Translations under genes and position numbers: made by a program
DNA from: an uncultured Actinomycetes bacterium
GTDB taxonomy: Bacteria > Actinomycetota > Acidimicrobiia > IMCC26256 > DASPTH01
Assembly: GCA_963819475.1 (NCBI GenBank)
Contig: CAWFWE010000009.1
Coordinates: 16,104-80,103 of the forward strand
DNA: 64,000 nucleotides
Direction of reading: 5' to 3'
Notes under the pieces: model-generated
What the model saw: the letters and a program-made list of their open reading frames with translations, nothing else
Told to the model about the DNA's origin: nothing
Database searches by the model: none
Part shown: one piece after another, positions 16,282-51,592 of the stretch
Numbering within the stretch: position 1 is the stretch's first letter
Layout: each line of letters opens with the position of its first letter

Positions 16282-16383
16282 GGATCCTCCCGGGTGGACC
16301 GCCGGGTGCTCTCGCCGGAGCGTACGCCGCGCGGTCCCGAAAGGAAACCGTGAATTCCGTGCCGGCTGTCCGAGAGATCCGGG

Positions 16384-16896: not shown

Positions 16897-17707
16897 CGCT
16901 GATTCCTTCCGCTCCTGGCGCCTGTCTCTCGTCGAAGTCCACGATCACGGGGGCATGATCGGACGGTTGCTTGCCCTTGCGGGCGTTGCGGTCGACCACC
17001 GCCCAGCGGGTGCGGTCGGCGAGCGGCTCGGTCGCGAGCACGAGGTCGATGCGCATGCCGCGGTGCTCGTGGAAGTCGCCCCGGCGGTAGTCCCAGTAGC
17101 TGAACAGGCGGTCGTCGTCGGGGTACTGACGGCGGAAGACATCGACCATGCCCCACCCGCAGAGGCGCGCCACCGCCGCCCGCTCGGGCTCGGTGACGTG
17201 GGTCGACCCGACGAACGCCTTCGGCGACCACACGTCGCGGTCTTCGGGCGCGACGTTGAAGTCGCCGAGCACCACCAGGTCGTCGCCCGGCGCGCTGGTC
17301 GCGGCGACCCAGTCGTGCAGCGCCTGCAACCAGTCGAGCTTGCGGTCGTAGAACTCGGTGCCCACCTCTCGCCCGTTGGGCACGTAGACGGTCACCACCC
17401 GTACGCCACCGCAGGTGGCGGCGATGACCCGGGCGTCGCCCTCGTACGGATCGACGTGGTCCTCGTCGAACCCGGTGGTGACGTCGGCGATGCCGACGCG
17501 GGAGAGGATGGCGACCCCGTTCCACTGCCCCTGCCCGTGGTGCACCGACTCGTACCCGAGCGCCGAGTAGGCGAGATGCGGGAACGCATCGTCGGAGAGC
17601 TTCGTCTCCTGGAGGCACACGACGTCGGGGCGGGCGTAGGCCAGCCACTCCTCGACCCGCTCCTGGCGGGCCTTGAGCGAGTTGACGTTCCAGGTGGCGA
17701 TGCGCAC
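16889..17707 (-). CDS. xthA: exodeoxyribonuclease III
   Basis: 272 aa. MRIATWNVNSLKAR...CLQETK...GDFNVAP...SDHAPV are canonical EEP/ExoIII motifs. Confidence 0.92.
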   Translation of the reverse strand: MRIATWNVNSLKARQERVEEWLAYARPDVVCLQETKLSDDAFPHLAYSALGYESVHHGQGQWNGVAILSRVGIADVTTGFDEDHVDPYEGDARVIAATCGGVRVVTVYVPNGREVGTEFYDRKLDWLQALHDWVAATSAPGDDLVVLGDFNVAPEDRDVWSPKAFVGSTHVTEPERAAVARLCGWGMVDVFRRQYPDDDRLFSYWDYRRGDFHEHRGMRIDLVLATEPLADRTRWAVVDRNARKGKQPSDHAPVIVDFDERQAPGAEGISDG

Positions 17708-17721
17708 CCGGGGGACGTTAG

Positions 17722-18717
17722 CTAGTCGGGCTGGATCCGGTGGTGCTCCCGGAGCTCGAGCAGCGCCTCGCGGTCGACCCGGTCGGCGGGCGCCACCGCG
17801 ACCCGCACGTCGGTCGACGCCTGGAGGCTCGCCGAGCGCACGCCGCCCTCGAGGACCGCGACCTCGCCGAGGATCACACCGGGGCCGAGCTCGGCCACCG
17901 CCTCGTCGTCGATGATCACCGACAGCACGCCGTCGAGCAGGAGGAAGAGCGAGTCACCCGGGTCACCCTGACGGACGAGGTACTTCCCCTGCTTGACCGT
18001 GCGGATCTCCGGTCGTTCACCGCCCGACATGATCGTGACCGACATCTGCCGCTCGAGCGCGGTCTCGACCGCGGTGACGAGGGCCTGCGACTCGTGCTCA
18101 CCCCAGGGGGTGTGCTTGCCGAACGCGTCGCGGTACCAGTCCTTGAAGTTCGCCAACCCGACCTTGGCCGCGATCTTGTCCTCGGCGTCGTACACCCAGT
18201 GACGGGGGAACTTGCTCGCGCCGAGCACCTCGAAGTCGGAGGTGCCGTCGGCACGCATGGTGAGCGCGAGCGTCGTCCACACCGTGGGCGCGCGGAACTG
18301 CAGGAACGGCGGGTGCTTCACCCGCCGGGGTGCGGGCAGGCCGGTGCGACCGCCGGTGGTCTGCACGAAGCGGACCTCGGTGTCGCTGCGCTCTGGTGCC
18401 TGCTGCAGGTCGGGCAGCTCCACCGGCTCGAACGTGGCCCGCAGCTTGGCCAGGTGCACCGTCGTCGAGCCCATCATGCCGCCACCCGCGTAGCCGGCGT
18501 CGACGATGCGGCCGTCCTCGATCTCGACCCAGGCCGACAGCCGGTTGGCGAACCGGAACCGGCCGGCGTCCCGCCATGCGTCCAGGTCGTCGATGGCGTC
18601 GGGCGGTGGCTCGTCATAGCTCGTGAACCCGGACTCGAACGTGCCCTTCAGCACCGGCCCGGTGACGGCTTCGGACGGGATCCAGGACACGGTGGTGACC
18701 GACGACTCGACGCGCAT
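17722..18717 (-). CDS. cyclic-nucleotide-binding protein with an unassigned N-terminal domain of about 230 aa
   Basis: ATG 18717 follows GAGGAGG. The C-terminal cNMP domain is LVRQGDPGDSLFLLLDG...GVILGEVAVLEGGVRSASLQA (a GE..A....RSA cassette). Confidence 0.8.
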   Translation of the reverse strand: MRVESSVTTVSWIPSEAVTGPVLKGTFESGFTSYDEPPPDAIDDLDAWRDAGRFRFANRLSAWVEIEDGRIVDAGYAGGGMMGSTTVHLAKLRATFEPVELPDLQQAPERSDTEVRFVQTTGGRTGLPAPRRVKHPPFLQFRAPTVWTTLALTMRADGTSDFEVLGASKFPRHWVYDAEDKIAAKVGLANFKDWYRDAFGKHTPWGEHESQALVTAVETALERQMSVTIMSGGERPEIRTVKQGKYLVRQGDPGDSLFLLLDGVLSVIIDDEAVAELGPGVILGEVAVLEGGVRSASLQASTDVRVAVAPADRVDREALLELREHHRIQPD

Positions 18718-18874
18718 GTCCGCCTCCTCGCATGATCGTCGCGTGGGAGAGTACGCCCACGACCGCCTGCAGGACGAGGGGGCAGGCCGTCCGACGGCGA
18801 GGAGGCCTGCACCCCCGGTGGCGGGTGGCCAGGCCACCTTGCTCGCAGCACGTCGACCGTTTGAATGGAGAACC

Positions 18875-20215
18875 ATGGGGGACGGACGCATCACCGTGTT
18901 CCTCGCCGACGACAACGTGATCGTCCGCGAGGGGGTGCGTGCGTTGCTCGCGCTGGAAGCCGACCTCGACGTGGTCGGGACCGCCGACGACTACGACAGC
19001 CTCCTGGCCGGAGCCGAGGCGATGGCGCCCCAGGTGCTCGTCACCGACATCCGCATGCCACCGAGCTTCCAGCGGGAGGGAATCGACGCGGCCAAGGAGC
19101 TCCGCAAGCGCCACCCTGGCACCGGCGTGGTCGTGCTGTCGCAGTACGACGACCCCGACTACGCCATCGCCCTGCTCGGCGACGGCGCCGCCGGCTACGC
19201 CTACCTCCTCAAGGACCGGGTCGGCGAGGGCAACCAGCTCGCTCGGGCAGTGCGCGAGGTGGCGACCGGCGGCTCGGTGATCGACCCGAAGATCGTCGAG
19301 GCGCTGGTACAGCCGGTCACCGACGACGCCGGCCTCACCGCGGCCGACGAGCACCTGCTCCACGAGATCGCCGAGGGCCGGCCGATCAAGGCGATCGCCA
19401 GCGCGCACGGCACCACCGCGGCCGCGATCGCCGACTCGGTGGAGGAGCTGTTCCTCAAGTTGTCGGAGGGCGCGAGCACGGGCACCGCCGGCGCGCTCAA
19501 GCGCCTCCGCATGCTGCACACCGCGATCGTCGACCGCGAGGAGCAAGGTGAGCGGCTGAGCCGACTGCTCCCCGGCGGGTTGGCCGAGAAGGTGCGCAAC
19601 GAGGGCCGTGCGATCGGCGAGACCGAGGAGCTCGACGTCACGGTGCTCATGGGCGACATCCGCGGCTACTCGGGCATCGCCGAGCGCAGCGACCCGACGC
19701 AGCTCGCCGCGCAGTTGAGCGACCATCGGGCCGAGATGAACCGCGCCATCCTCGACGAGGGCGGCACGGTGATGCAGTTCGTGGGTGACGCGGTGATGGC
19801 GTGCTTCGGGGCACCGGTGCCGCTCGACGACCACGCCGACCGGGCCGTGTGCGCCGCGCGCTCGATGCTGGAGCGCCAGCGCGAGCTCAACGAGCGGTGG
19901 CTGGCGCAGAGTCGCGCGCCGTTCGGCATCGGCATCGGCGTGTCGACCGGGCCGGTCGCCGCCGCGCTGCTCGGCTCCGAGGAGCGGGTCGAGTACACGC
20001 TGGTGGGCGACACCGTGAACCTCGCGCAACGGCTGCAGGACCTGGCCCGCCCGTCGGGCCGCATCGTGATCAACGAGAGCACGTACTCGGCGCTGCACTC
20101 CGACTTCGACGTGGTGCCGCTCGACGAGACGACGGTGAAGGGGCGGAACACGCCGGTGCGGGCGTACCGCATCGACGTGTTCGACGACATGGAACGGGGA
20201 CTGGCACATGAGTGA
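18875..20215 (+). CDS. response regulator (REC) - LuxR-type HTH - class III adenylate/guanylate cyclase fusion
   Basis: ATG 18875 inside ORF 18623..20215. The REC domain is VFLADDN...VLVTDIRMPP...VVVLSQY. The HTH-like segment is LTAADEHLLHEIAEGRPIKAIAS. The cyclase motifs are VLMGDIRGYSG, FVGDAVMACFGAP and TLVGDTVNLAQRL. Confidence 0.85.
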   Translation: MGDGRITVFLADDNVIVREGVRALLALEADLDVVGTADDYDSLLAGAEAMAPQVLVTDIRMPPSFQREGIDAAKELRKRHPGTGVVVLSQYDDPDYAIALLGDGAAGYAYLLKDRVGEGNQLARAVREVATGGSVIDPKIVEALVQPVTDDAGLTAADEHLLHEIAEGRPIKAIASAHGTTAAAIADSVEELFLKLSEGASTGTAGALKRLRMLHTAIVDREEQGERLSRLLPGGLAEKVRNEGRAIGETEELDVTVLMGDIRGYSGIAERSDPTQLAAQLSDHRAEMNRAILDEGGTVMQFVGDAVMACFGAPVPLDDHADRAVCAARSMLERQRELNERWLAQSRAPFGIGIGVSTGPVAAALLGSEERVEYTLVGDTVNLAQRLQDLARPSGRIVINESTYSALHSDFDVVPLDETTVKGRNTPVRAYRIDVFDDMERGLAHE

Positions 20216-21035
20216 GCGTCGGGAGGCGGGTATCCCGCCGAGCAGCGAGCGGGGCCTGGGCGGCCCGGCGCCGGAGGCGACGAGAGCGGGGATGATGAGT
20301 GACGCGGTGGCGGATGGAACAGCAGGGCAGGTGGTGGAGACGCACGGCCTGCGCAAGACGTTCGAGTCCGAGGGCGCGCCGGTACGTGCGTTGCGGGGCG
20401 TCGACTTCACGATGGCGCCGGGCGAGTTCGTGGCGGTGATGGGACCGTCGGGCTGCGGCAAGTCCACGTTGCTCAACATCGTCGCCGGCCTCGACACGCC
20501 CACCGACGGCGACGTGTGCCTGGCGGGAGAGGCGCTGGTCGGCAAGACCGAAGACGAGTTGGCGATCATGCGCCGCCGCCACATCGGCATCGTGTTCCAG
20601 TTCTTCAACCTGCTCGAGGGCATGAGCGTGCTCGAGAACGTGACATTGCCCGCGGTGATCGCGGGCGCGCCACGCAAGCGCGCCGAGACCCGCGCCCGCG
20701 ACCTGCTCGACCTGCTCGGCCTCGGTGACAAGGCCAAGGACGCGCCCGGTGTGTTGTCGGGCGGCCAGCGGCAGCGGCTCGCCATCGCTCGCGCGCTCGC
20801 CAACGAGCCCACCCTGCTCCTCGCCGACGAGCCCACCGGCGCGCTCGACTCCGAAGGCGGCCACGAGGTGCTCGAGCTGTTCCGCCGCCTCCATGCCGGC
20901 GGCCAGACCATCCTGATGGTGACCCACGACGACGCCGTAGCCGCGGCCGCCGACCGCATCGTGCGGATGCGCGACGGGCGCATCGAGTCCGAAGCCGAGG
21001 AGGCCGCGGCTTCGGCGGCCTCTACCGCCTTCTAG
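20208..21035 (+). CDS. ABC transporter ATP-binding protein (MacB/LolD type)
   Basis: Walker A GPSGCGKST, signature LSGGQRQR, Walker B LLLADEPT. ATG 20208 overlaps the cyclase stop by 8 nt; an alternative start is ATG 20292. Confidence 0.9.
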   Translation: MSERREAGIPPSSERGLGGPAPEATRAGMMSDAVADGTAGQVVETHGLRKTFESEGAPVRALRGVDFTMAPGEFVAVMGPSGCGKSTLLNIVAGLDTPTDGDVCLAGEALVGKTEDELAIMRRRHIGIVFQFFNLLEGMSVLENVTLPAVIAGAPRKRAETRARDLLDLLGLGDKAKDAPGVLSGGQRQRLAIARALANEPTLLLADEPTGALDSEGGHEVLELFRRLHAGGQTILMVTHDDAVAAAADRIVRMRDGRIESEAEEAAASAASTAF

Positions 21036-21106
21036 GTCGACGGCGTCGCGAGCGTGCCCGGTCGCATGGCCGCCCGGCTGCACCCGGCGTTGGTGCCGAG
21101 GAGGGA

Positions 21107-23494
21107 GTGATGGGCGCCATCGTGATGCTCGCGTGCTCCGAGCTGCGCCGGCGTTGGCGCAGTGTGACCGTGCTGACGCTGCTGGTCGCGTTCGCGGGCG
21201 CGGTGGTGCTCGCGCTGGTCGGGGGTGCGCGCCGCACCGAGACCTCGCTGGCCCGGTTCGAGCACGACAGCCGGTCAGCCGACGTCGAGTTCGACGCCGG
21301 CGACGTGACGCCGGCCCAGGTGGACGAGCTCCGGCACTCACCGGGAGTGGCCGCGGTCGCGCAGCTGCAACAGCTCACGCTCGTCTCCCGCACCGGGCCG
21401 TTCCAGAATCAGTTCCTGCCGAGCGCGGCGCAGATCGACCACCGCTTCGGCACCGAGGTGGACCGCGCCCGCGTGGTCGAGGGGCGCGCCGCCCACCTCG
21501 ACGCGGTCGACGAGCTCACCATCGGCGAAGGCCTGGCGACGCTGCTGCACCTCGGAGTCGGTGACCATTTGCGCTTCGCGTCGTTCAGCCCGGCCGACGT
21601 CGAGCAGGCTGATACCGCGCTGGACCTTCATGGACCGAACGTGACCTTCCGCATCGTCGGCATCGTGCGCCGGCCCCTCGATCTCGGCGGCCGAGGCGCC
21701 GTCGGCGGCGTCATCGTCCCGACACCTGCGTTCCTCGATCGCTACCGCGACGAGATCGGCTCGTTCTCGGGCGCGGTCCTGCGGGTGCGCACGGTGCACG
21801 GAAAGGCCGACGTCGACCGCGCCACCCGGGCCGCGCGCGGGATCTTCCGCGAATCGCCGTCGTTCGGCGTGACCAATCTCAACATCGAAGGACAGGGCGC
21901 GCAGAACGCGATCGACGTGACCACTGTGGGGCTCTATCTCGCCGCGGCCATCGCCGCGCTCACTGCGCTGGTCGGCATCGCCATCGCGCTCTCGCGCGAG
22001 ATCTCGCTCGGCGACACGAACCAGTTGACCCTCAGCTCGCTCGGTCTCCGACCGCGAGATCGGGTCGCGGCGTCCGCCGCCATCGGTCTCCCCGTCGCAG
22101 TGGTCGGCGCGGTGGGGGCGGTGATCGGTGCGGTGCTCGCGTCATCGATCTTCCCCATCGGCGTCGCCGCCAAGGCGGAACCCGACCCGGGGCTCCGTGT
22201 CGACGGCGCGATCATCGGCATCGGGTTGATCGTGATCGCGGGCAGCGTGGCGGTCCTCGCCGTGGCTGCGGGACTGCGGACGGCCCGAGCCACGCGGCCG
22301 CGCGCGGAAGCCGTCGCCCCCAGCCTGTCGGCGCGTGCGACGGCGGAGGCCGGCGCACCGCCTCCCGTCGCCGTCGGCGTGCGCTTCGCGCTCGACCGGG
22401 GGCGCCAGCGCCACGCGCTCCCGGTTCGGTCCTCCTTGCTCGGCGCGGCCTTCGGTGTGCTGGTCGTGGTGGCGGTCCTGATGTTCACCAGTGGGCTGCA
22501 CCACCTCGTGCACACGCCGGCGCAGTACGGGTGGACGTGGGACCTCGTCGGTTACGACCAGCCCGCCAGCCCGCCGTCCGGTCGCGACTGCGGTCCGATC
22601 ACCACCACCCTCACCGCGGACCGGAGCTTCTCGGCGGTCGCATCGGTGTGCTCGAGCGGTGTCGACGTCGGCGGCCGCCCGGTCACGGCCTGGGGTTTCC
22701 AGCAGCTGCGCGGGTCGGTGCAGCCCGAGATCGTCGACGGGCGCGCGCCGCACACCGACGGAGAGGTCGCACTGGGTGCCGACACGCTTGCGGCACTCGG
22801 CCAACACGTCGGGGGCCGCGTGCGCATCACCGGCGAGGCACGCTCGGCGAACTTCCGGATCGTCGGCCAGGCGGTCCTCCCCGGCATCACCGACCCCGAG
22901 CCGATCGCCGACGGTGTCGCGCTCACCTCGGCCGCACTCGACCGGCTGGGCGCGAGCGGGGGCTGGAACTTCGTGGTCAAGCTCGCGCCGGGAGTCGACC
23001 GCGACGCGGCGATCCGCGCCCAGCGGAAGGCGTCGGTCTTCGGCGGCCCGATCACGCCGACGCTGCCGGCGGAGATCGACCGCGTCCGACAGATCCGCCG
23101 GTTGCCCCTCGCGCTGGCGGTGTTCGTCGCGGTGATCGCGCTCGTCGCCGTGGGGTTGGCCCTGGTGTCGTCGTTGCGCCGACGCCGCCGGGAGCTCGCG
23201 GTGCTCAAGACGCTGGGATTCACGCGGCGCCAGGTGCGGGCCACCGTCGCGTGGCAAGCGAGCACCGTGGCCGCGGTCGGCCTCGTCATCGGCATCCCGC
23301 TGGGGCTGCTCGTGGGCACCTCCGTGTGGCGAAGGGTCGCCGACGAGCTCGGCGTGTCGGGCGAGCCCACGTGGCCCGTTCTCGGCATCGCGCTGCTCGC
23401 CGTCGGCGCTCTCCTCGCGGTGAACGTGATCGCGGCATTTCCCGCCCGCCGGGCTGCGAACACCCAGCCCGCAGTCGTGCTGAGGAGCGAGTGA
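21107..23494 (+). CDS. ABC transporter permease with two FtsX-like modules
   Basis: 795 aa. An N-terminal TM helix, a large extracytoplasmic region and 3-4 TM helices form a unit that occurs twice. The C-terminal module LKTLGFTRRQV... is typical of FtsX/MacB permeases. Confidence 0.85.
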   Translation: MMGAIVMLACSELRRRWRSVTVLTLLVAFAGAVVLALVGGARRTETSLARFEHDSRSADVEFDAGDVTPAQVDELRHSPGVAAVAQLQQLTLVSRTGPFQNQFLPSAAQIDHRFGTEVDRARVVEGRAAHLDAVDELTIGEGLATLLHLGVGDHLRFASFSPADVEQADTALDLHGPNVTFRIVGIVRRPLDLGGRGAVGGVIVPTPAFLDRYRDEIGSFSGAVLRVRTVHGKADVDRATRAARGIFRESPSFGVTNLNIEGQGAQNAIDVTTVGLYLAAAIAALTALVGIAIALSREISLGDTNQLTLSSLGLRPRDRVAASAAIGLPVAVVGAVGAVIGAVLASSIFPIGVAAKAEPDPGLRVDGAIIGIGLIVIAGSVAVLAVAAGLRTARATRPRAEAVAPSLSARATAEAGAPPPVAVGVRFALDRGRQRHALPVRSSLLGAAFGVLVVVAVLMFTSGLHHLVHTPAQYGWTWDLVGYDQPASPPSGRDCGPITTTLTADRSFSAVASVCSSGVDVGGRPVTAWGFQQLRGSVQPEIVDGRAPHTDGEVALGADTLAALGQHVGGRVRITGEARSANFRIVGQAVLPGITDPEPIADGVALTSAALDRLGASGGWNFVVKLAPGVDRDAAIRAQRKASVFGGPITPTLPAEIDRVRQIRRLPLALAVFVAVIALVAVGLALVSSLRRRRRELAVLKTLGFTRRQVRATVAWQASTVAAVGLVIGIPLGLLVGTSVWRRVADELGVSGEPTWPVLGIALLAVGALLAVNVIAAFPARRAANTQPAVVLRSE

Positions 23495-37547: not shown

Positions 37548-38105
37548 TCAGGACCCGCTGCCGAGCTCGAGCACCGGGCGGGCGTCGTAGCCGAGGACGC
37601 GGGCGACGGGTTGCTGCAGAGCGCCGGTGCGCTCGTCCTCGTACCGGTCGACCGCGGTGTTGTAGGCGCGGACCAGTGTCTCGTTCGGACGGGTGGAGGC
37701 GAAGGTCGTGAGCGCGCTGGTCACGTCGGTGATGCCGCGGATGCGCTGTGAGCCGAGCGTGTTCGCGACCAGCCGGGTGCCCTGGGCCTCGACCGCGTTG
37801 GCCGCCTCGACCTGGGCCGCGGCGCCGCCGTCGCGCAGCGCGCGCTGCCATTCGGTGAGCGCGGCGTGCAGGTCCTTCGACACGCCCCGATCGGCGCCCC
37901 CGGCGGCGTCGAACGTGCGCAGGGCGTCGGCCAATGCCTGGTACCGGGCCACGAGCTGGTCGGGAGCCCGGAGCGGCTTCCAGCGCACGTCGACCGCCGT
38001 TCGGGCGTCGTCGAGCTTCGGCCGCTCGACCACGACGAGGGCGATCGCACCTGCCACGAGCGCGACGATCAGGACCAGCAGGATCCACCGGGTGCGTCGC
38101 GACAT
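37548..38105 (-). CDS. LemA-family-like membrane-anchored protein
   Basis: 185 aa. An N-terminal TM helix (WILLVLIVALVAGAIALVV) is followed by a helical body ending in AYNTAVDRYEDERTGALQQPVARVLGY, which resembles the LemA C-terminus. Confidence 0.65.
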   Translation of the reverse strand: MSRRTRWILLVLIVALVAGAIALVVVERPKLDDARTAVDVRWKPLRAPDQLVARYQALADALRTFDAAGGADRGVSKDLHAALTEWQRALRDGGAAAQVEAANAVEAQGTRLVANTLGSQRIRGITDVTSALTTFASTRPNETLVRAYNTAVDRYEDERTGALQQPVARVLGYDARPVLELGSGS

Positions 38106-38187: not shown

Positions 38188-38676
38188 ATGGTCCGCTCCC
38201 GGGCCGTGGTCGTGGTCACCGTGCTGACCGCCGCCTCGGTGCTGGGGTGGTGGTTCGGTGAGACGCGACGTGCGGTCTCCCAGCAATACCGAGTCGTACA
38301 GGTGCTCGACGGCGACACCGTGGTGGTGCAGCGCGACGGCGGGCCCGAGACGATCCGCCTCCTGGGCGTCGACACGCCCGAGACGCACCATCCCCGCAAG
38401 CCGGTGCAGTGCTTCGGGCCGGAGGCCGCCGCGTACACGGCGCGGCGTCTCTTCGGGCAGCTGGTGCGGCTGGAGGACGACGTCGAGCGCCACGACGTCT
38501 ACGGCCGCCGGCTCGCGTACGTGTACCTCCACGGCGCCAACTTCGAGGAGGAGCTGTTGCGCAAGGGCTACGCACGCCTGCTCGTCATCGAACCCAACCA
38601 CGCCCACGCACGCGACATGCTCGACGAGGAGTTGAACGCGCGCGCCCGGCGCGTCGGGTTGTGGGGTGCCTGCTGA
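38188..38676 (+). CDS. thermonuclease (SNase-fold) family protein
   Basis: 162 aa. An N-terminal hydrophobic segment is followed by VLDGDTVVV...IRLLGVDTPE...GRRLAYVY...GLW. Confidence 0.85.
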   Translation: MVRSRAVVVVTVLTAASVLGWWFGETRRAVSQQYRVVQVLDGDTVVVQRDGGPETIRLLGVDTPETHHPRKPVQCFGPEAAAYTARRLFGQLVRLEDDVERHDVYGRRLAYVYLHGANFEEELLRKGYARLLVIEPNHAHARDMLDEELNARARRVGLWGAC

Positions 38677-38855: not shown

Positions 38856-40994
38856 TCAGGGGTGAGCGGTCGTCCCGCGGTTCTGGACGACGAATCGACC
38901 ATCGGGTGTGATGGCAGCGGCGAGAACGTCCACGACGGCTTGTGTCGGCAAGGGCCCATAGATGTGCGGGAACTTCTCGTCGCCTGCCTCGAAGTTCTCG
39001 ACCACGACGGGCACGTCGAGGCGCACGGTGTCGATCACGAGCACGACGAGCGGTTCTGGTGCGTCGCGGTACATGACGGCGCCGACGACAGAGACCTGAT
39101 GCTCGAATCCCGCGTGGATGAACCCGACATCATCGAGTCGCGCTCCTCGGGTCGAAACACGATAGGCCCCGCTGCGTTCCGCTGCCTTCCAGTCGCTCTC
39201 GAACGCGATGTGGAAGATGAAGCGAGTCGGTTTCTCTGCCGAGTTCGGGGACACGCGCACGTCGAGTGCGGCAGCGAGGTTCGCGAACTCCTGGTCGACC
39301 GTTCGCGCCCAGCGTTCCTCGTCTCGACTGTGGTCGTGGGTCTGCGCATTCTCTGCGAGCGCGAGGTAGTACTCGGCGTGGCGGCGTCGGACAGCGTCTG
39401 CCTCGCCAACGGCGTCCAGCCGCTCGCGCGCGTATTGCCGCATCGTCTCGTGGAGCCGGTAGCGCGTCTCACCTGCCGACTCGTCGGCTGCCACCATCGA
39501 GCGAGCGACGAGACTCGAAAGGAGGTCGAGTACCTCATCGCGCTCGATCCCTTCGCCGCTCAGGACGGCCTCGGCGGCCTCGAGGGTGAAGCCACCCGCG
39601 AAGGCGGCAAGGCGGTTGAACGCCTGCGCGTCTTCGTCGGAGAGGAGTTCGTAGGACCAGTCGACCGTCTTGCGAAGGGTCTGGTGCCGTTCGAGCGCCG
39701 TACGGCGCCCGCCGGTCAGGAGACGAAAGCGTTGGTCGAGGCGCTGCGCGATCTCGCCTACGGAAAGCGAGGCGACGCGCGCGGCAGCCAACTCGATGGC
39801 CAGCGGTACACCGTCGAGTCGGCGACAGACGTCTGCGACGATCGGCGCGTTGACCTCGGTCAAGGCGAACTCCGGGCGGACGGCTTGTGCGCGGTCGGCA
39901 AACAGCCGCAACGACGCCCCCGCCATGAGCTCCGCCGACGATGCATGTTCATCCGGAACGGCGAGCGAACCCACAGGACGCACGAGTTCGCCATCGATTC
40001 CCAGGGCTTCACGGCTGGTGGCCAGCACCACGACACCCGGACACGCGTGGGCGATCGCTTCGGCCAGCGCCCCCGCTTCGTCGATGACATGTTCGCAGTT
40101 GTCGAGCACCAACAGCAGCTGCTTGCTGCGCAGGAACTCGAGCACGTTCGTCGTGACTGACTCGCGCTGCTGCTGACGCACCCCGAGGCACGCAGACACC
40201 GCGTCGGGTACCGCGCCCCGATCGGTGATCGCCGCCAGCTCGCACAACCACGCACCATCGGAGAAGGCGGGCAACGCCTCGGCTGCCACCTGCGACGCCA
40301 GTCGCGTCTTGCCAACCCCACCAACTCCGATCAGGGTCACGACACGAGACTTCGCGATCGCGTCCGCAACCGAGACGAGCTCGGCATCACGACCGACAAG
40401 ACTTGTGAGGAACACCGGCAACCTGGAGGGGAACCGTTCGAGCGAGCGCAACACCGGAAACGTGTCAGGCAACCCAGCGTGCCGGACCTGGAAGACGTGT
40501 TCGGCGCGACCAAGGTCGCGTAGGCGATGCTCCCCGAGATCGAGGAGCTCGGTCCCGGCAGGGAGCACATCACGTACCAGCTCCGCGGTCGTCAGCGAGA
40601 CGACGATCTGGCCACCGTGCGCGGCAGCCATCAGCCTCGCCGCACGATTCACCTCCGGACCGAAATAGTCGCCGTCTCGCAGCTCGGCGACACCGGTATG
40701 GACTCCCATCCTTGCTCGCAGCGGTTCGCTCGCAAACCACGGCTCGGCGCTCAACGCCAACTGACCGTCGATTCCAGCCTCCACTGCCGCATCGGCCATA
40801 GCGAACACCGCATGCACACCATCACCAGTGCCCTTCACGACGTGACCGCCATGCGCTGCGACGACGTGCCGCAGGATCGCGTCATGGCGCGCAAGTGTCC
40901 CGTGCATCGCATCGGGATGGTCCTCCCACAGGCGCGTCGAAGCTTCCACGTCGGTGAACAAGAAGGTGACCGTCCCCGATGGCAACTCCGCCAC
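38856..40994 (-). CDS. class III nucleotidyl cyclase - STAND/NB-ARC-like NTPase - DUF952 fusion protein
   Basis: GTG 40994 (or 40997) follows GGGGAGGGGG, inside ORF 38856..41210. Cyclase motifs are TFLFTDVEAS, KGTGDGVHAVF and FGPEVNRAARL. The Walker A is GVGGVGKTRLA, followed by LLVLDNCEH and RLDGVPLAIELAAAR. The C-terminal 122 aa (RFIFHIAFESDW...GFIHAGFEHQV...KFPHIYGPLP) form a DUF952 domain. Confidence 0.8.
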   Translation of the reverse strand: MAELPSGTVTFLFTDVEASTRLWEDHPDAMHGTLARHDAILRHVVAAHGGHVVKGTGDGVHAVFAMADAAVEAGIDGQLALSAEPWFASEPLRARMGVHTGVAELRDGDYFGPEVNRAARLMAAAHGGQIVVSLTTAELVRDVLPAGTELLDLGEHRLRDLGRAEHVFQVRHAGLPDTFPVLRSLERFPSRLPVFLTSLVGRDAELVSVADAIAKSRVVTLIGVGGVGKTRLASQVAAEALPAFSDGAWLCELAAITDRGAVPDAVSACLGVRQQQRESVTTNVLEFLRSKQLLLVLDNCEHVIDEAGALAEAIAHACPGVVVLATSREALGIDGELVRPVGSLAVPDEHASSAELMAGASLRLFADRAQAVRPEFALTEVNAPIVADVCRRLDGVPLAIELAAARVASLSVGEIAQRLDQRFRLLTGGRRTALERHQTLRKTVDWSYELLSDEDAQAFNRLAAFAGGFTLEAAEAVLSGEGIERDEVLDLLSSLVARSMVAADESAGETRYRLHETMRQYARERLDAVGEADAVRRRHAEYYLALAENAQTHDHSRDEERWARTVDQEFANLAAALDVRVSPNSAEKPTRFIFHIAFESDWKAAERSGAYRVSTRGARLDDVGFIHAGFEHQVSVVGAVMYRDAPEPLVVLVIDTVRLDVPVVVENFEAGDEKFPHIYGPLPTQAVVDVLAAAITPDGRFVVQNRGTTAHP

Positions 40995-41044
40995 CACGAC
41001 CCCCTCCCCGCTCGCCCAGCTCGGACGACCAAGTAAACCAGGCA

Positions 41045-41070
41045 CACCGGACCGGGTCACAGGTCCGGTG
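41045..41070. promoter_or_regulatory. perfect 9-bp inverted repeat upstream of the cyclase-STAND-DUF952 gene
   Basis: CACCGGACC (41045-41053), an 8-nt loop, then GGTCCGGTG (41062-41070). It lies about 50 nt upstream of start codon 40994 and 22 nt before the duplicated nuclease 3' end. Confidence 0.3.
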
Positions 41071-41092
41071 AGTCGCACAGAACGACGCCCTG

Positions 41093-41175
41093 GACCCAAC
41101 CACGCCCACGCGCGCCATGCTCGACGACGACGTGCACGCGCGCGTGCAGCGGGTCGGCCTGTGTTGTCGGAGTAC
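41093..41175 (+). pseudogene. orphan second copy of the thermonuclease gene 3' end (remnant)
   Basis: It aligns with 38591-38676 at roughly 65 of 85 positions by eye, including the 18-nt perfect run ACCCAACCACGCCCACGC. It encodes PNHAHAR / MLDDDVHARVQRVGL, against PNHAHARDMLDEELNARARRVGLW in the intact gene. A 2-nt gap breaks the frame, and no nuclease body lies upstream. Confidence 0.7.
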
Positions 41176-41271
41176 CGAACTGAGCACACGGCCGCCGGTC
41201 GACAGCTCACGCGAACTGCGGCATGCTGCGCTCAGCACTGGGCACGAATCGGGCGGACGAGGGGAGCCGAC

Positions 41272-41592
41272 ATGAAGTTCGTCGTGGAGTGGACCACGCG
41301 GCCGGGGAGCGATCCGAAGGACAACGTGCAGAGCAGCGACAGCCTGCTCCAGGCGTTCGGGAGTTGGACACCGCCCGCGGAGTGGACCATCAGCGAGTTC
41401 GTCACGCGCGTCGACGGCCGGGGCGGGCTCCTCATCTGCGAGACCGACGATCTCGGGAGCATCGATCGGGCGGTGGCGCAGTACCTCGCGTGGCTCGACT
41501 ACGAGGTCACGCCGGTGGTTGACATCGGTGACGGCGTCGGCAACCTCGCGGCGGGGAGCGCGTGGGCGCGCACCGCCGGCGGTCTGGGCTGA
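41272..41592 (+). CDS. DUF3303-family protein
   Basis: ATG 41272 follows GAGGGGAG, inside ORF 40954..41592; 106 aa. MKFVVEWTTRPG... is the typical DUF3303 start. Confidence 0.7.
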   Translation: MKFVVEWTTRPGSDPKDNVQSSDSLLQAFGSWTPPAEWTISEFVTRVDGRGGLLICETDDLGSIDRAVAQYLAWLDYEVTPVVDIGDGVGNLAAGSAWARTAGGLG

Positions 41593-41627
41593 TCGGTTCG
41601 GCTTCTCCGGCAATCTACATTGCACGA

Positions 41628-42245
41628 ATGGCGACGGAAGAGGCACGATTCGCCGCGGCCGCGAGCTTGCGGGCTCTCAGTCACTCGTTTGCCGCGCACG
41701 ATCCTGACGACGACGTGCTCACCCAGATCGCAGCGACCGCGACCGAACTCGCGCGCCGGGTCGATGAGGCGCCGACGCGTGAGCGCCTGGCGCCCATGCG
41801 GAAGCTTCCGGACGGGTCGAACCTGGACGTGCTCGGGTTCGAGGACCGAGCCGTCGGCGGCTCGTCGAACCCGATGAGCCTCGAACTCGGCGTTCGATAC
41901 GACACCGACGAAGTGGTCGCCGACGTCGTGTTGCGGAGCGCGTTCGAAGGCGCACCCGGTCGTGCCCACGGCGGCATCATCGCTGCGGCGTTCGATGACG
42001 TCACGGGCTTCCTGATCGCCAGGCTCGAGGAACCGGCCTTCACCGTTGAGCTGACGGTTCGGTATCTCGCACCGGTGCGCGTCGAAGAGTCCTTGGAGAT
42101 CCGCGCCCGGATCGACGGGCGGGAGCGCCGCAGAATCTTCATCAGCGCCGAAGCACGTGTCGCGGAGACGGTGGTCGCGACCTGCCAGGCCACCTACCTC
42201 ACGGTCGATCCGAGCCGCTTCGCGACAGCCGGCGATCCCCGCTGA
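41628..42245 (+). CDS. PaaI-family (hotdog-fold) thioesterase
   Basis: ATG 41628 inside ORF 41562..42245. The core is GAPGRAHGGIIAAAFDDVTGF with a hotdog C-terminal half. Confidence 0.75.
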   Translation: MATEEARFAAAASLRALSHSFAAHDPDDDVLTQIAATATELARRVDEAPTRERLAPMRKLPDGSNLDVLGFEDRAVGGSSNPMSLELGVRYDTDEVVADVVLRSAFEGAPGRAHGGIIAAAFDDVTGFLIARLEEPAFTVELTVRYLAPVRVEESLEIRARIDGRERRRIFISAEARVAETVVATCQATYLTVDPSRFATAGDPR

Positions 42246-47377: not shown

Positions 47378-47863
47378 ATGACCACCGAGGTCGTTGCCAG
47401 TCCACCCACGTCGACAAGGTCGTCCCACAGTCCCCGCCGCGTGCTCGTGTCCGTAGTGGCGCTCATCGTCGCCGCGCTCATCGGCGCAGGGGTCGTTGCG
47501 CTGAGTGGGAGCGGCACGTCGGGAGAACGCGCCGCAACGGTGCAGCGAGCGGCGGTCCTCCCAGCGGGGAACACCGCCTGCGCCGGGGACGGCGGGGCCC
47601 TGCTGGCGACCATGGTCTCGATGCCGATCGACGTCTCGAGCGACATCATGAGCCGGCTGTCGGCCCCGACTCGTGCACTGCTGGCCAGCGCGGTCGAGCA
47701 GAGCGCGATCACCCGGACGACGCCGGATACACCCGATGCCACGGCGCTCTCCGCCGCCCTCTCGCGCGTCGCACCCGGCGACGCCACGTTGTTGATGCGT
47801 GGGCTCTCGCCGCAGACCCGGGATGCGATCGCCGCGCAGGCCGGCGGATCGGCGTGCCGGTAG
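47378..47863 (+). CDS. single-pass membrane protein, function unknown
   Basis: 161 aa. GAGAGGAG lies 6 nt upstream of the ATG. There is one TM helix (VLVSVVALIVAALIGAGVVAL). No family recognised. Confidence 0.55.
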   Translation: MTTEVVASPPTSTRSSHSPRRVLVSVVALIVAALIGAGVVALSGSGTSGERAATVQRAAVLPAGNTACAGDGGALLATMVSMPIDVSSDIMSRLSAPTRALLASAVEQSAITRTTPDTPDATALSAALSRVAPGDATLLMRGLSPQTRDAIAAQAGGSACR

Positions 47864-47884
47864 CGGAGTTCCGCTCCACGGTCC

Positions 47885-47923
47885 GAGGGGTGCCTGCCGG
47901 CGTCGGCCTGGTGGGCACCCCTC
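47885..47923 (+). terminator. perfect 10-bp stem-loop between the membrane-protein gene and the SARP-cyclase-STAND gene
   Basis: GAGGGGTGCC (47885-47894), a 19-nt loop, then GGCACCCCTC (47914-47923). It lies 22 nt after stop 47863 and 50 nt before ATG 47974. There is no U-tract, so it could equally be an attenuator or operator. Confidence 0.35.
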
Positions 47924-47973
47924 CAGCCGAAGCGGCCGCGGCGCCCGCAGGCCGAAGGTGGGACAATCCGGTA

Positions 47974-50900
47974 ATGTCGAGCCGCGAAGCGGAGATCGCG
48001 TTCGGGGTCTTGGGCCCACTGCAAGTCTCCAGAGACGGCGGCGAGCTCGAATTCGGGAGCCCGCAGATCCGTCTGCTGCTGGCCGCGTTGTTGGTCGACG
48101 CGAACGTGGTGGTGTCGGCCGATCGACTGATCGAAGTGCTGTGGGGCGACGAGCCGCCGCCGAGCGCGGCGAGCTCGGTCCAGAAGCTCGTGTACCGGTT
48201 GCGCTCCCTGCTCGGTCCCGGCTCCGACGAGGTCGTCGTGACCCGCGCCCCGGGATACGTGCTGCACGTGGGTCCCGGGTGCCTCGATGCCACGCGCTTC
48301 GAGAGTTTGGTGGTCGACGCGCACGCGATGAAGCGCCGGGGCGACGCCGCGGAGACCCTTCGGTTGCTCGACGGCGCGTTGCGGTTGTGGCGAGGTTCCG
48401 CGTTCGCGGAGTTCGCGTTCGCCGAGTTCGCGCGCGCGGAGGCGGCTCGCCTCGACGAGTTGCGGTGGACGGCCGTCGAAGATCGCGTCGAGGCGCGGCT
48501 GGCGTTGGGCGGTCACGAGGAGCTCGTCGGCGAGCTCGAGGTGCTCGTACGCGAGTCCCCGTTCCGCGAGCGCTTGTGGGGAGAGCTGATGCTGGCGCTC
48601 TATCGCTCGGGCCGACAGGCCGAAGCACTGCGGGCGTATGCGCGAGTCCGGACCTTGTTGGGTGAGGAGCTGGGGATCGAGCCGGGCGCGCCGCTGCGTG
48701 GCCTCGAAGAGGCGATGTTGTTGCAGAAGCCGGAACTCGACTGGGTTCCACCTGCTTCGACCATCCCGGCCCCCGTCGCGGCGGCCGTGGAGGTCGGCCG
48801 ACCCGCTCCGCCATCGGGAACCGTGACCTTCGTGTTCACCGACGTGGAAGGCTCGACGCGCCTGTGGGAGGAGCACGCCGACGCCATGACGTTCGCGCTT
48901 GCCCGCCACGACGACATCGTGCGCACCGCGGTCGAGGGGCACGCCGGATACTTGGTGAAGACGACGGGTGACGGCGTGCACGCGGCGTTCGCGACTGCTT
49001 CCGATGCACTCGAAGCCGCACTCGAGGCCCAGCGCCTGCTCGTGGCCGAGCCATGGGACGGTGACGACCCGCTGCGCGTTCGCATGGGAGTGCACACGGG
49101 TTCGGCCGAATACCGCGACGGCGACTACTACGGCACCGCCGTGAATCGGGCCGCCCGGGTGATGGCCGCGGCCCACGGCGGGCAGGTGGTGGTGTCCCTC
49201 GCGACCGAGGAGCTCGTCCGCGACTCGTTGCCCGAACACGTCACACTGGTGGACCTGGGCGAGCATCGCCTCCGCGATCTGGCCCGGCCCGAGCGCATCT
49301 TCCAACTTGCGCACCCGGAGCTGCTCGACGACTTCCCGCGACTGCAGTCGCTCGACGCGTTCCCGAGCAATCTGCCGGCACAGGTCAGCTCGTTCGTCGG
49401 ACGCGATCAGGACGTCGCCGACGTTGCGCACGCGCTTGCTGAATGGCGACTGCTCACGCTCACCGGAGTCGGCGGCGTCGGCAAGACTCGCCTGGCGATC
49501 CAGGTCGCGGCGGAGATCCTGCCGCACTTCCGGGATGGGGCATGGCTCTGCGAGCTCGCGGCCGCGAGCGAACCGGAAGCCATGCTCCAGGTCATTGCCA
49601 CCGCCCTGCGCGTCCAACCACGCCCGGGCGTCTCGATCATGGATCTCATCACCGAGTTCCTGTGCAGCAAGCGGCTGCTCCTCGTGTTGGACAACTGTGA
49701 ACACCTGCTCGATGCCGCGGCGCAGTTCGTCGATGCGGTGCTGCGGGATGCGCCAGAGGTCCGCATCCTGGCGACGAGCCGCGAGGGCCTCGCGGTCGAC
49801 GGCGAGCACATGCGAGCGTTGCGTTCGCTCTCCGTGCCCGACCCGTCGGCAGACGTCGAGTCTCTCGTCCGGAGTGATGCCGGGAGACTGTTCGTCGATC
49901 GCGCGGCAGGCGGTGGATTCGTCCTTCGTGCTCGACGCGCCGACCGGCGCGGCGGTCGGGGAGTTGTGCCGACGGCTCGACGGCGTCCCGCTCGCGATCG
50001 AGCTCGCCGCGGCGCGAATCGTCGCCATGAGCCCGGCCGAGATCGCGACCCGTCTCGACGAACGCTTCCGGCTCTTGACCGGTGGGCGACGTGCCGCCGT
50101 CGAGCGTCACCAGACCCTTCGCGCCACGGTCGACTGGTCCTTCTCGCTCTGTTCGCCAGCCGATCAGCGCGTCTTCGCTCGACTCGGCGTCTTCGCGGGA
50201 ACCTTCGGTTCGGAGGCGGCCGAAGCCGTTGCGACCGGTGAGGGCGTCGAGCGCTGGGATGTCATCGAGGCGCTCGCGAGCCTGGTGGGCAAGTCCATGG
50301 TGGTCGGCGACCGCGCCGCAGACGGCGGCACGAGATACTCGATGTTGGAGACGCTCCGAGCGTACGCACGCGAGCGCCTCGACGAGACCGGCGATCCGGA
50401 CCAATGGCGCCGGCGTCACGCCGAGCACTTCGCCGACTTCGCGGAGCAGGCGGGCTCGGGTTTGGAAGGCCCCGATGAGCACGTGTGGCGCGCCCGGGTG
50501 CGAGCTGACCTCGACAACGTCCGAGCGGCGATTCGATGGGCGCTCGACTCCGCACTCACCGCCGATGCGCAGCTCGGACTCCGCATCGTCGCCGCGCTCG
50601 CCTACGCCGCAGTCATCGACATGACCTCAGGCGTCGGCGCCTGGACCGAGCGCGCCGTGGCGCGGGTCGCGGAGACCACACCCGGGCGGCGCACCGCGAT
50701 CCTGGGCGCCGCGGCGATCCAGGCGATCTACGTCGGTGCCCTCGAACGGGCGCGGACGCTTGCGCTCGACGCGTTGCGCGACGGTCTCCCACCCGACTGC
50801 CCGGTCCCGGCTCCCGCCTACGCCGCGCTCGCGAGCTTCGAGTTGAACCAGGGCCGGCCCGACGAGTCGCTCCGCATCGTGCGGCGCGGGCTCCAGGACC

Positions 50901-51592
50901 TGGAGACCACTGCGGGGCACGACACGTGCAAGCTCAGCATCTTCCATGCCCTCGTCGCGGTGTTCTCGGAGCGGTGCGGCGACGTCACAACGGCGCGCGC
51001 CGAGGCCGAGACCGCACTCCGACTGGCGCGTCAGGTCGACAATCCGTCTGCGATGGCGAACGCCCTGTGGTCGACCGGCAGGGCTCTGATCCGCGCGGAC
51101 CCCCCGGCGGCGCTCGTCGCCTACGAGGGCTACGTCGTGTTGGCCCGCACCGGTGTGAAGAGCGCCAACCTCGGCTGGACCCTCGGTGATGTGAGCTGGC
51201 TCAAGGCACGCGCCGGCGACCGTCGTGGTGCGCTCCAGGCGGCGACGGACGGCATTCGCCACGACCTCCGATCAGGCAACCGCACGATGCTCGCCGGCGC
51301 GCTGAACCGCACCAAGCTGGCGCTCGTCGAGCTCGGTCACCCGGAACCGGCCGGGGTGCTCGCCGGAGCCGAGCTCGACGGACCGCTCGTCGCGTGGCAC
51401 ATGGGTGACAAGGCCGCCCTCCTCGAGGAAGTAGAAGATTGGGATCGCGCGCTCGGCGCGCTCCGCACCTCGCTCGGCGCCGACGCCTACGAGCGCGCCC
51501 TCGGCGTCGGCTCGGCCATGACCTTCCACGAGGTCGTCGAGTACACCCTCGACGAACTGGCGCGGTTGTCGGCCGAGACGCGCGACGAGTGA
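47974..51592 (+). pseudogene. SARP (wHTH+BTAD) - class III cyclase - NB-ARC-like NTPase - TPR regulator, reading frame interrupted once
   Basis: ATG 47974 inside ORF 47854..50241. The SARP/BTAD part is AFGVLGPLQV...RLLLAALL...RAYARVRTLLGEELGIEPG. Cyclase motifs are TFVFTDVEGS, KTTGDGVHAAF and YGTAVNRAARV; the P-loop is GVGGVGKTRLA. The frame switches at about 49903-49906 (TCGCGCGG, one extra G) into ORF 49307..51592 (QAVDSSFVLDAP...RLDGVPLAIELAAAR... TPR-like repeats). The span is 3619 nt (3n+1). Confidence 0.8.

Follow-up and report, generated by a model that had tools for sequence, protein, structure and literature searches.

Analysis of a 64,000-nucleotide stretch of DNA (the window) establishes that a gene on its minus strand at 38856..40997, consisting of 713 codons and a stop, encodes a class III cyclase joined to a STAND NTPase and a DUF952 domain. 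This gene is real and evolutionarily maintained, and relative to its family it has lost a TPR arm and gained the DUF952 domain. The encoded protein is a rare variant of a known signaling family and is not a new kind of immune system. To date the variant has been seen in just a handful of soil-type genomes from uncultured organisms, and the related sequences are metagenome-assembled and mostly labeled Actinomycetota.

The open reading frame has a maximal extent of 38856..41210 on the minus strand, and two plausible start codons lie 3-6 nt 3' of a Shine-Dalgarno-like GGGGAGGGGG (41000..41009, minus strand) that was read from the sequence directly 5' of the start. These are GTG 40997, giving a protein of 713 aa, and GTG 40994, giving 712 aa. 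An earlier sequence-only reading of this DNA had described one uninterrupted three-module frame of 712 aa, which agrees with the ORF list at one of these two start choices, and every motif that it quoted is found in the protein. Scans for promoters and terminators found none. The reading had also predicted that a Pfam search would return Guanylate_cyc, an NB-ARC-type domain and DUF952, and all three were matched above their cutoffs: DUF952 (PF06108) with E 1.6e-21 and 76 bits vs a cutoff of 23.7, Guanylate_cyc (PF00211) with E 7e-13 and 49 bits vs a cutoff of 21.9, and NB-ARC with E 4e-6 and 26.7 bits vs a cutoff of 23.5. The window protein is identical to database protein P0267, and its orthologues P0268 and P0269 span 99% of its length.

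The cyclase and NTPase signatures, which had been called intact, do contain all of the catalytic and nucleotide-binding residues. The class III adenylate cyclase catalytic domain occupies residues ~5-175 (40473..40985, minus strand) and contains metal-binding Asp16 and Asp59, substrate-binding Lys55 and Asp110 and transition-state residues Asn117 and Arg121, with the cyclase motifs conserved across all fused orthologues. Among solved structures it is best matched by the adenylyl cyclase Ma1120 (sequence E 6e-21, structural TM 0.92), and it most resembles housekeeping mycobacterial adenylate cyclases, carrying the Lys/Asp pair that specifies ATP. The STAND NTPase core follows at residues ~196-530 (39408..40412, minus strand), as defined by Pfam matches to NB-ARC, AAA_16 and nSTAND and by its conserved motifs. 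These comprise a Walker A motif GVGGVGKT (K230), a Walker B motif LLVLD (in LLVLDN, with D299), sensor-1 R329 (TSRE), the GxP motif GVPLA and a winged helix with LHE (in RLHE) that contains the MHD-like H516. The only solved structure matched by sequence is AfsR (8K60, E 1.6e-9), which is also the best NCBIfam match at 54 bits, far under the AfsR equivalog cutoff of 1430, while Foldseek matched Apaf-1, NRC NLRs and MalT. A C-terminal repeat-type sensor arm (TPR, WD40 or LRR) was looked for downstream of this core, and there is no TPR match in Pfam; only a three-helix stub is left. This stub, delimited by AF2 secondary structure at residues 533-580 (39258..39401, minus strand), is followed in relatives by the first TPR repeat.

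Homology to TPR-bearing relatives stops at the end of the stub. In an alignment with P0271-P0279 it ends at D580 (...AALD), past which the relatives run on with W(S/C)..GDADLALRL. The window protein instead reads ...DQEFANLAAALD (nt 39258-39260), then the 12-aa linker VRVSPNSAEKPT (39222..39257, minus strand) and then RFIFHIAF (39221 downward), such that the DUF952 domain is placed exactly where the sensor arm begins in relatives, after a disordered linker. The window retains no remnant of a TPR arm. That a complete DUF952 domain has taken the place of this arm had been proposed from the sequence, and the breakpoint falls at the nucleotide positions that were given then. The alignment with a paralog at 47974-51592 of the window, which had been said to end near the junction, holds to residue 578 (55-59% identity over residues 6-578). 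This paralog has the domain order SARP, cyclase, NB-ARC and TPR, and a single frame switch at ~49906 divides it between two reading frames; both the SARP domain and the frame switch had been missed earlier.

The linker itself suggests how the two parts were joined. Its first codon (39255-39257) is GTG in the window and is GTG or ATG in every fused copy, as judged by comparison of the junction codons in the window, L168, L081 and L167. The capture thus probably took in an entire free-standing DUF952 gene from its start codon onward. Comparison with the leaders of free DUF952 proteins likewise indicates that the linker probably corresponds to the initiation codon and N-terminal leader that such a gene once had. 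The linker is disordered (AF2 pLDDT < 50 for residues 583-590) and is the sole stretch of the protein that is free to vary, with an unconstrained dN/dS of 0.74-1.1. No Shine-Dalgarno-like sequence that would support an internal translation start occurs 5' of the junction GTG.

The same junction is present in at least six other environmental sequences, among them two intact orthologues, a 91%-identical syntenic copy and two fragments. The intact full-length orthologues, P0268 (705 aa) and P0269/P0387 (696 aa), are ~70% identical to the window protein, while L168 contains the 91%-identical colinear copy and L081 a 79%-identical copy that spans the junction. The breakpoint is identical in all fused copies. 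In the tree of the cyclase-NOD part the fused proteins form a clade (bootstrap 99.5%) with TPR-bearing P0271 as its sister and nest within a very large family of ~915-aa cyclase-STAND-TPR proteins, and the best tree places the fused DUF952 copies in one monophyletic group (bootstrap 61%). The fusion is of single origin, and it has been retained to at least dS 0.5-0.9 in several lineages and never re-split. All three modules are under purifying selection, with dN/dS of 0.18-0.23 for the cyclase, 0.25-0.29 for the NOD and 0.18-0.34 for DUF952.

These comparisons effectively refute the view that the gene results from an assembly or frameshift error or is a pseudogene in decay. That view could point to 1-nt indels inside the gene in L168 and L081, to gene calls P0001 and P0002 that begin at an internal Met and to the frame switch in the window paralog. 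However, the window ORF is open for 713 codons, dN/dS is well under 1 in every module, and a sequencing or assembly artefact is ruled out by two independent intact full-length orthologues and by DNA that is colinear over the junction in all copies. The 1-nt indels in L168 are assembly noise, since flanking genes of L168 whose window counterparts are intact carry such indels at the same density (~1 per kb). Annotation of the L168 locus as two genes, P0270 (540 aa) and a 156-aa DUF952 protein, was likewise rejected because the split is due to two 1-nt deletions. The fusion is far beyond chance or artefact.

Additional fused loci were sought in several ways. Among the matches listed in a scan of genome contigs (80 loci), none extends to the DUF952 part, and none of 12 listed plasmid records from tblastn reaches into DUF952. 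A metagenome scan with two STAND peptide patterns only found no fused loci; this result and that of the genome-contig scan are weak negatives. Among short relatives no other C-terminal domain swaps were found. The sister loci were also inspected for a trace of fusion between adjacent genes, and no DUF952 gene was found 3' of P0271 or P0272; the nearest free-standing DUF952 genes adjoin MerR, GNAT, DinB_2 and glyoxalase genes, not STAND genes.

A chimeric origin had been proposed earlier in part from base composition. Phylogeny and the shared breakpoint uphold the chimeric origin, but GC content gives it no support. The six GC values counted over 60-nt lines were reproduced exactly (0.62, 0.60, 0.67, 0.65, 0.63 and 0.58), but their interpretation fails. 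GC3 is 0.770 in the DUF952 part and 0.769 in the whole gene, vs 0.92-0.96 in neighboring genes, so that the entire gene is compositionally atypical and not its tail alone. As GC3 is uniform along the gene, GC content was discarded as evidence for a chimera.

The DUF952/CC0527-type domain, which had been grouped earlier with the ADP-ribosyltransferase (ART) fold, spans residues 593-713 (core 593-705; 38859..39221, minus strand). The structure of CC0527 was solved in 2006, and the domain matches it by PDB sequence search. The AF2 model of the domain has a pLDDT of 88.8, and a Foldseek search, as had been suggested, recovers the CC0527 fold (2O0Q, TM 0.81, E 3.6e-7) followed by Tpt1/KptA, DarT and cholera toxin. 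The domain retains 33 of 34 family-conserved columns, inclusive of both His. Of the H-H-h motif H628 and H678 are present, whereas the Ser of HxS is Gly630. Every fused copy has either Gly or Ala at this position, a change that also occurs in P0003, the closest of the free-standing relatives. The Ser of HxS normally contacts the NAD ribose, and its replacement by Gly or Ala might weaken NAD binding. The literature agrees on the fold: DUF952 is in the Pfam ART clan (PMC7955679), and the CC0527 clade has an H-H-h motif with HX[S/T] and adjoins Tpt1/KptA in the ART superfamily (PMC8120803). DUF952 proteins have no known biochemical activity or ligand, and NAD+-dependent ADP-ribosyl transfer has never been demonstrated in the family (PMC8120803). 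Identity of the fused domain to its closest free-standing relatives is 63-71%, and the best 150 of 2,005 DUF952 representatives are all ≤ 365 aa.

We tentatively favor, as the best explanation and at just short of an even chance, a sensor-arm swap in which DUF952 became the input of a cAMP-producing switch. One ancestral event would have removed the entire TPR arm, with the cut directly before the first repeat, and fused the D580 codon in frame with the initiation codon of an entire free-standing DUF952 gene, with selection maintaining the product since. DUF952, held on a flexible 12-residue tether in the position of the sensor arm, would then be the input module. The conserved NAD-type pocket would bind its ancestral ligand, which may be an NAD+/ADP-ribose-like nucleotide and/or the small molecule of the free DUF952 proteins; the conservation of the pocket would imply that this ligand is still bound. 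Binding would free a closed, ADP-bound NTPase, and ATP-driven oligomerization would unite the N-terminal cyclase domains as dimers so that cAMP is made. Class III cyclases work as dimers. Gating of the cyclase by oligomerization is an extrapolation from other STANDs, since the parent cyclase-STAND-TPR family has no functionally characterized holo-protein (PMC4452763). We infer that DUF952 is most likely a ligand-binding input rather than a second output. This is an argument from position only, and it is in keeping with documented STAND sensors that derive from enzyme folds such as FGE-sulfatase (PMC13581612).

A conserved catalytic pocket suits a second enzymatic output equally well. DUF952 could be a second effector with a non-immune role, consuming NAD+ or ADP-ribosylating a small molecule, a protein or a nucleic acid. 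STAND oligomerization would switch it on together with the cyclase, and the signal would be sensed elsewhere, for example by the NTPase core or by a partner protein. This is unlikely but deserves serious consideration, given that the ART-type pocket residues (H628, H678 and others) are conserved under a dN/dS of 0.18-0.34 and that the fold is shared with Tpt1/KptA, DarT and toxin enzymes. There is also precedent for a STAND with a functional module at each end, namely the cyclase-ATPase-LuxR proteins (PMC4452763) and the SARP-cyclase-STAND-TPR paralog in the window. A STAND between two enzyme-like modules had been regarded earlier as an undescribed architecture, and these two-ended (Rv0386-type) proteins make the flanked arrangement less exotic than had been supposed. 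Against a second output are the missing HxS serine, the lack of demonstrated catalysis in the DUF952 family (PMC8120803) and the fact that the protein would be left with no recognizable sensor, a situation in which other STANDs are usually constitutive or inactive.

A further possibility is a Rosetta-stone fusion with no allosteric coupling, in which DUF952 keeps its ancestral function and the cyclase-STAND part is constitutive or regulated by expression. The full-length model has a pTM of 0.61 with no confident interdomain contact, so that docking of DUF952 on the NTPase is not confidently predicted, and the linker is disordered and evolves neutrally. DUF952 is also found joined to unrelated ankyrin, MgtC, GST and DUF6596 modules, and a junction at an old start codon suggests simple capture of the read-through type. 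We nevertheless regard uncoupled fusion as improbable, since several lineages keep the fusion unsplit over the divergence given above and since loss of the whole TPR arm in the same event suggests functional replacement and not addition.

The surroundings of the gene bear on whether it could be a defense gene. Copies of a ~72-nt direct repeat, identified by repeat search (families D8 and D1), bracket a 2.5-kb unit in which the cyclase-STAND-DUF952 gene is the sole gene. The left copy (38592..38663, plus strand) lies inside the 3' end of an intact SNase gene (38188-38676, with a Pfam match), while the right copy (41094..41163, plus strand), whose two parts match at 95% and 79% identity, is an orphan 3' piece of SNase ~100 nt 5' of the gene start. 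L168 has an equivalent SNase fragment 5' of the orthologue, and a related genome has the same arrangement adjoining the same DUF3303-P450-ABC-P450 block, so that the insertion is neither recent nor private. SNase was rejected as a conserved partner of cyclase-STAND genes, being absent from 80 other loci (1.35 Mb total). The neighbors are gltBD, SNase, DUF3303, thioesterase, P450, ABC transporter and sulfotransferase genes. Thus the earlier placement of the gene alone in a small insertion stands as far as the repeat-bracketed unit is concerned, but not as regards a defense context.

That the protein is an antiphage NLR-like protein with two effectors (cyclic nucleotide and NAD-utilizing toxicity) carried on a small mobile defense insertion, as the sequence-only reading had proposed, is very unlikely. 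Such a reading could draw on the repeat-bracketed unit, the atypical GC3 (0.77 vs 0.92-0.96) and a weak PycC-like match, and both ART-fold and cyclase domains are known from defense systems. Defense and non-defense STAND clades are also interspersed (PMC13581612). However, PADLOC matched no Avs, bNACHT or other defense STAND model and returned only the weak PycC match (E 2.6e-4 over 65 residues); the neighbors in the window are metabolic genes, and no defense genes lie near the locus there, in L167 and L168 or at the sister loci. The window contains no tRNA, the neighboring genes scanned include neither an integrase nor any other mobility gene, and no effector gene with a cNMP-binding domain adjoins the gene. 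The flanking repeat, being an SNase gene fragment, indicates a local segmental duplication confined to this lineage. In addition, the cyclase is housekeeping-like with an ATP-type Lys/Asp pair, the NTPase core is nearest to AfsR, and the huge signaling family to which the protein belongs has several paralogues per genome, some of which carry SARP or LuxR DNA-binding domains. The AfsR match, these relatives and the negative PADLOC result give the protein a regulatory rather than an immune affinity. It is similarly hard to credit a compact NLR-like abortive-infection device in which DUF952 is an active NAD+-using second effector or a receptor for an NAD-derived immune signal. Were such a device (cAMP signaling combined with ADP-ribosylation or NAD+ depletion) real, the DUF952 family would have its first assigned function, and this would be the first case of an ART-fold module coupled to a cyclase-STAND.

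Under the favored sensor-arm swap, DUF952 occupies the input position of a switch, and the cAMP that this switch would produce is easy to measure. If DUF952 does gate the switch, then the protein would be a natural reporter with which NAD+, ADP-ribose derivatives, antibiotics and other xenobiotics could be screened as candidate ligands, and the cAMP read-out would turn the DUF952 annotation problem into a simple assay. The fusion is also a clean, datable case of STAND sensor-arm replacement via whole-gene capture at a start codon. The general understanding of STAND or cyclase proteins is unchanged.

For completeness, we compare the fused protein with known systems. Avs, bNACHT and Pycsar share with it the logic of effector, NOD and C-terminal recognition module, and PycC has a cyclase fold distantly related to its cyclase. 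However, sensors of defense STANDs are typically ≥ 400 aa (PMC13581612) while the C-terminal module here is ~120 aa, and Pycsar pairs PycC with an adjacent cNMP-activated effector gene whereas the fused gene has a weak partial PycC match and no such effector. CC0527/DUF952 proteins are normally free-standing, and here DUF952 is the C-terminal module of a 713-aa STAND. AfsR, a Streptomyces SARP-NB-ARC-TPR global regulator, has the nearest solved STAND core (8K60), but has a SARP DNA-binding N-terminus and a TPR arm and lacks both the cyclase and DUF952. The M. tuberculosis Mclx proteins Rv0386, Rv1358 and Rv2488c consist of a cyclase, an AAA/NB-ARC domain and a LuxR HTH (PMC4452763, PMC2447327). 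As in the fused protein, the class III cyclase is N-terminal, a STAND-type ATPase comes next and each end bears a functional module, but the Mclx proteins end in repeats and a LuxR DNA-binding domain in place of DUF952, and Pfam matched no HTH or GerE in the fused protein. Rv0386 reportedly has unusual substrate-defining residues (work of Castro et al. in 2005), unlike the canonical Lys/Asp pair of the fused protein. A homologue from a Mycobacterium plasmid, where it bears the annotation of a LuxR regulator, shows 45% identity across residues 1-544. Also close are the ~915-aa cyclase-STAND-TPR proteins (such as P0271 and P0272; 73-74% identical over residues 1-580), which appear in IMG as 'predicted ATPase/class 3 adenylate cyclase' and are soil-bacterial/actinobacterial. 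They have the cyclase, NTPase motifs, winged helix and three-helix stub in common with the fused protein, and differ from it in that a ~330-aa TPR-like arm stands where the fused protein has its linker and DUF952 domain.

The fused gene (38856-40997, minus strand) is a single open frame with a maximum extent of 38856..41210 in the ORF list, and GTG 40997 or 40994, located directly 3' of GGGGAGGGGG, is the sole start with a ribosome-binding site, yielding 713 or 712 aa in agreement with the 712-aa frame of the sequence-only reading. Pfam analysis indicates that all three modules score over the curated cutoffs: Guanylate_cyc at residues about 5-160 of 713 aa (49 bits), NB-ARC (26.7 bits) and DUF952 (76 bits, E 1.6e-21). 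The junction lies where that reading had placed it, with the frame passing from ...DQEFANLAAALD (D580, nt 39258-39260) through the linker VRVSPNSAEKPT into RFIFHIAF..., and the window paralog is alignable up to residue 578. The cyclase contains metal Asp D16 and D59, the ATP-type Lys55/Asp110 pair and Asn117/Arg121, and it most resembles the solved mycobacterial adenylyl cyclase Ma1120. The NTPase contains Walker A and B, a sensor-1 Arg, GxP and a winged helix with an MHD-like LHE. Of the 34 DUF952 columns with at least 70% conservation among 159 family members, 33 are retained, both H-H-h histidines among them; the lone exception is the HxS Ser, replaced by Gly or Ala in every fused copy and likewise in the closest free-standing relative. 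The paralog (47974-51592, plus strand) is itself a SARP (Trans_reg_C + BTAD)-class III cyclase-NB-ARC-TPR gene, divided between two frames (ORFs 47854-50241 and 49307-51592) by one frame switch within its NTPase domain, at about 49906; the switch reflects an assembly indel, or else the gene is a pseudogene.

The fusion is real. Searching with the last 254 residues recovered two junction-spanning metagenomic fragments, P0001 (84% identical) and P0002 (73%), and L081, the DNA encoding P0002, is colinear with the window gene across the junction (833 nt, 79% identity). A full-length database search returned the window's own protein (P0267) as well as two intact orthologues that share all three Pfam domains, P0268 (705 aa, 70% identity) and P0269/P0387 (696 aa, 69-70% identity), the latter named in IMG 'predicted ATPase/class 3 adenylate cyclase/uncharacterized protein (DUF952 family)'. 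Also recovered was P0270, which is 90% identical and just 540 aa; its locus, L168, holds a colinear copy of the entire fused gene at 91% identity with two single-base deletions. A 'two genes' arrangement in L168 was rejected as assembly noise because the 5-kb conserved flank carries the same type of indel relative to the window, at about one per kb and thus equally dense, in genes whose window counterparts are intact. L168 (ENA ERZ25039520 contig_17131) has such indels in its P450 and ABC transporter genes as well, and many of its genes are called as fragments because of them, which looks like long-read assembly error and calls for caution on gene calls from these assemblies. Besides the window, at least six environmental sequences have so far shown the fused architecture.

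Base composition and substitution patterns were compared module by module. The sequence-only reading had taken a lower GC content of the DUF952-coding part as a sign of chimeric origin; its six counts were reproduced, but DUF952 is not distinct since GC3 hardly changes from module to module (cyclase 0.73, NTPase 0.785, DUF952 0.770). It is the whole fused gene (38856-40997) that is low, at 0.77 versus 0.92-0.96 in gltB, gltD, SNase and DUF3303; GC3 of the paralog is 0.84-0.86. A thioesterase gene at 41562-42245 is likewise low (0.80), and is missing from the syntenic L168. Nei-Gojobori dN/dS values for the window gene were 0.29 (NTPase) and 0.18 (DUF952) against L081, which does not cover the cyclase; 0.23 (cyclase), 0.26 (NTPase), 0.74 (linker) and 0.19 (DUF952) against L168; and 0.18, 0.25, 1.10 and 0.34, respectively, against the fused locus L167. 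Cyclase, NTPase and DUF952 are all constrained, and the linker alone is free to vary. Set against these values and the intact orthologues, an artefact or pseudogene is exceedingly improbable. It is also unlikely that DUF952 is an uncoupled 'Rosetta-stone' passenger. The fused protein is a genuine and rare variant within a well-known protein family and is maintained by selection; no description of its architecture was found in the literature searched.

The fusion has a single origin. At E < 1e-20 the cyclase-STAND part has more than 8,000 matches among database proteins, the closest being ~915-aa relatives with a C-terminal arm of TPR-like repeats and 73-74% identity over residues 1-580. The breakpoint falls at the identical residue in all fused proteins: after ...AALD the relatives continue into W(S/C)..GDADLALRL, the first repeat of the arm, and the fused proteins into the 12-aa linker and DUF952. 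Fused proteins form one clade (neighbor-joining bootstrap 99.5%, 579 shared columns) whose sister is the TPR-bearing P0271, and their DUF952 domains form one clade (bootstrap 61%, 109 columns) nested among free-standing DUF952 proteins of 63-71% identity. The linker opens with a GTG codon in the window, L168 and L081, and with ATG in L167 (Met in P0269). Free-standing DUF952 proteins have N-terminal leaders of 4-30 residues ahead of the first strand, and the leader of one of them, P0003 (VSVPDGSRGRPD|RFIF), equals the linker in length. The simplest reading of these sequences is that a complete stand-alone DUF952 gene may have been joined in frame, by its own start codon, to codon 580, with the whole arm probably lost in the same event. 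Because Val-to-Met changes occur often, this capture of a start codon is suggestive and short of proof, and the joining event is not reconstructable because no DUF952 gene was found downstream in the sister loci (P0271, P0272). The P0268/P0269 sublineage, which is on a long branch, lacks 12 residues (HDHSRDEERWAR-like) relative to window residues ~553-565 (about nt 39303-39341), within the three-helix stub directly before the junction. Other DUF952 fusions, all <450 aa, involve ankyrin repeats, MgtC, DUF6596 and glutathione S-transferase (P0015, P0084, P0102, P0120).

Part of the SNase 3' end, ~72 nt long (38592-38663), recurs at 41094-41163, and the two copies bracket a 2.5-kb unit (spacing 2,500 nt) with the fused gene as its sole gene. 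In L168 an SNase fragment also lies upstream of the orthologue, and a DUF3303-P450-ABC-P450 block is on the same side as in the window (90-93% identity). SNase pieces in L168 (9603-9791, 13655-13956 and 21464-21613) each adjoin a cyclase-STAND gene, including both other paralogues, and SNase was absent beside cyclase-STAND genes in 80 other loci; local segmental duplication in this lineage therefore accounts for the pattern. The arrangement is older than the window/L168 split, and suggests that the duplicated unit consists of SNase and cyclase-STAND cassettes. L168 carries its three cyclase-STAND genes in a 12-kb stretch, one with DUF952 and the others (14153-16921, 18592-21339) with TPR arms, which shows local paralogue expansion of the family in that genome. 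Between gltD and SNase the window has a 185-aa ORF (37548-38105, minus strand) whose N-terminus is hydrophobic and which neither Pfam nor PADLOC matches. Close free-standing DUF952 relatives (L082, L083-L086) adjoin MerR, GNAT acetyltransferase, DinB_2 and glyoxalase genes, and the L167 orthologue has APH, HIT, esterase and glyoxalase genes nearby; these contexts agree weakly with a conjecture in the literature that DUF952 targets antibiotics or xenobiotics.

The predicted C-terminal module (pLDDT 88.8, pTM 0.82) matches CC0527 first in Foldseek searches of the PDB (E 3.6e-7, TM 0.81), then Tpt1/KptA, with DarT and the cholera-toxin family ranking after, which bears out the placing of DUF952 in the ADP-ribosyltransferase fold by the sequence-only reading. 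Given this fold and the retained columns, DUF952 might be a second catalytic output, a possible though rather unlikely role. The full-length model (pLDDT 87.8, pTM just 0.61) matches Ma1120, ADP-bound Apaf-1, plant NRC NLRs and MalT, and runs from the winged helix through only three helices (533-581) and a disordered stretch (583-590) into DUF952. Class III cyclase domains function as dimers. We tentatively infer, at somewhat less than an even chance, that DUF952 is the ligand-binding input of a switch: held in the sensor position by a flexible tether with its pocket kept, it would bind a ligand and release the ADP-bound NTPase, whose ATP-dependent oligomerisation would pair the cyclase domains to produce cAMP. 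The main value of this moderately interesting protein is as a handle on DUF952 function.

An antiphage device with two effectors, as proposed from sequence alone, is very unlikely. PADLOC returned PycC alone, weakly (E 2.6e-4), with no match to a defence STAND model. The genes surrounding it in the window and at every related locus have metabolic or transport functions, and the window contains no tRNA. The regulator AfsR is the sole solved sequence match of the NTPase core, NCBIfam concurs, and relatives bear SARP or LuxR DNA-binding modules (PMC4452763). Together these observations place the fused protein in the regulatory branch of STANDs. A 2026 survey notes defence and non-defence STAND clades to be interspersed; as it clustered only sensors of at least 400 aa from defence clades, the cyclase-STAND-DUF952 architecture falls outside its scope (PMC13581612). 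The same survey notes that enzyme-derived folds, for example FGE-sulfatase, can serve as STAND sensors (PMC13581612).
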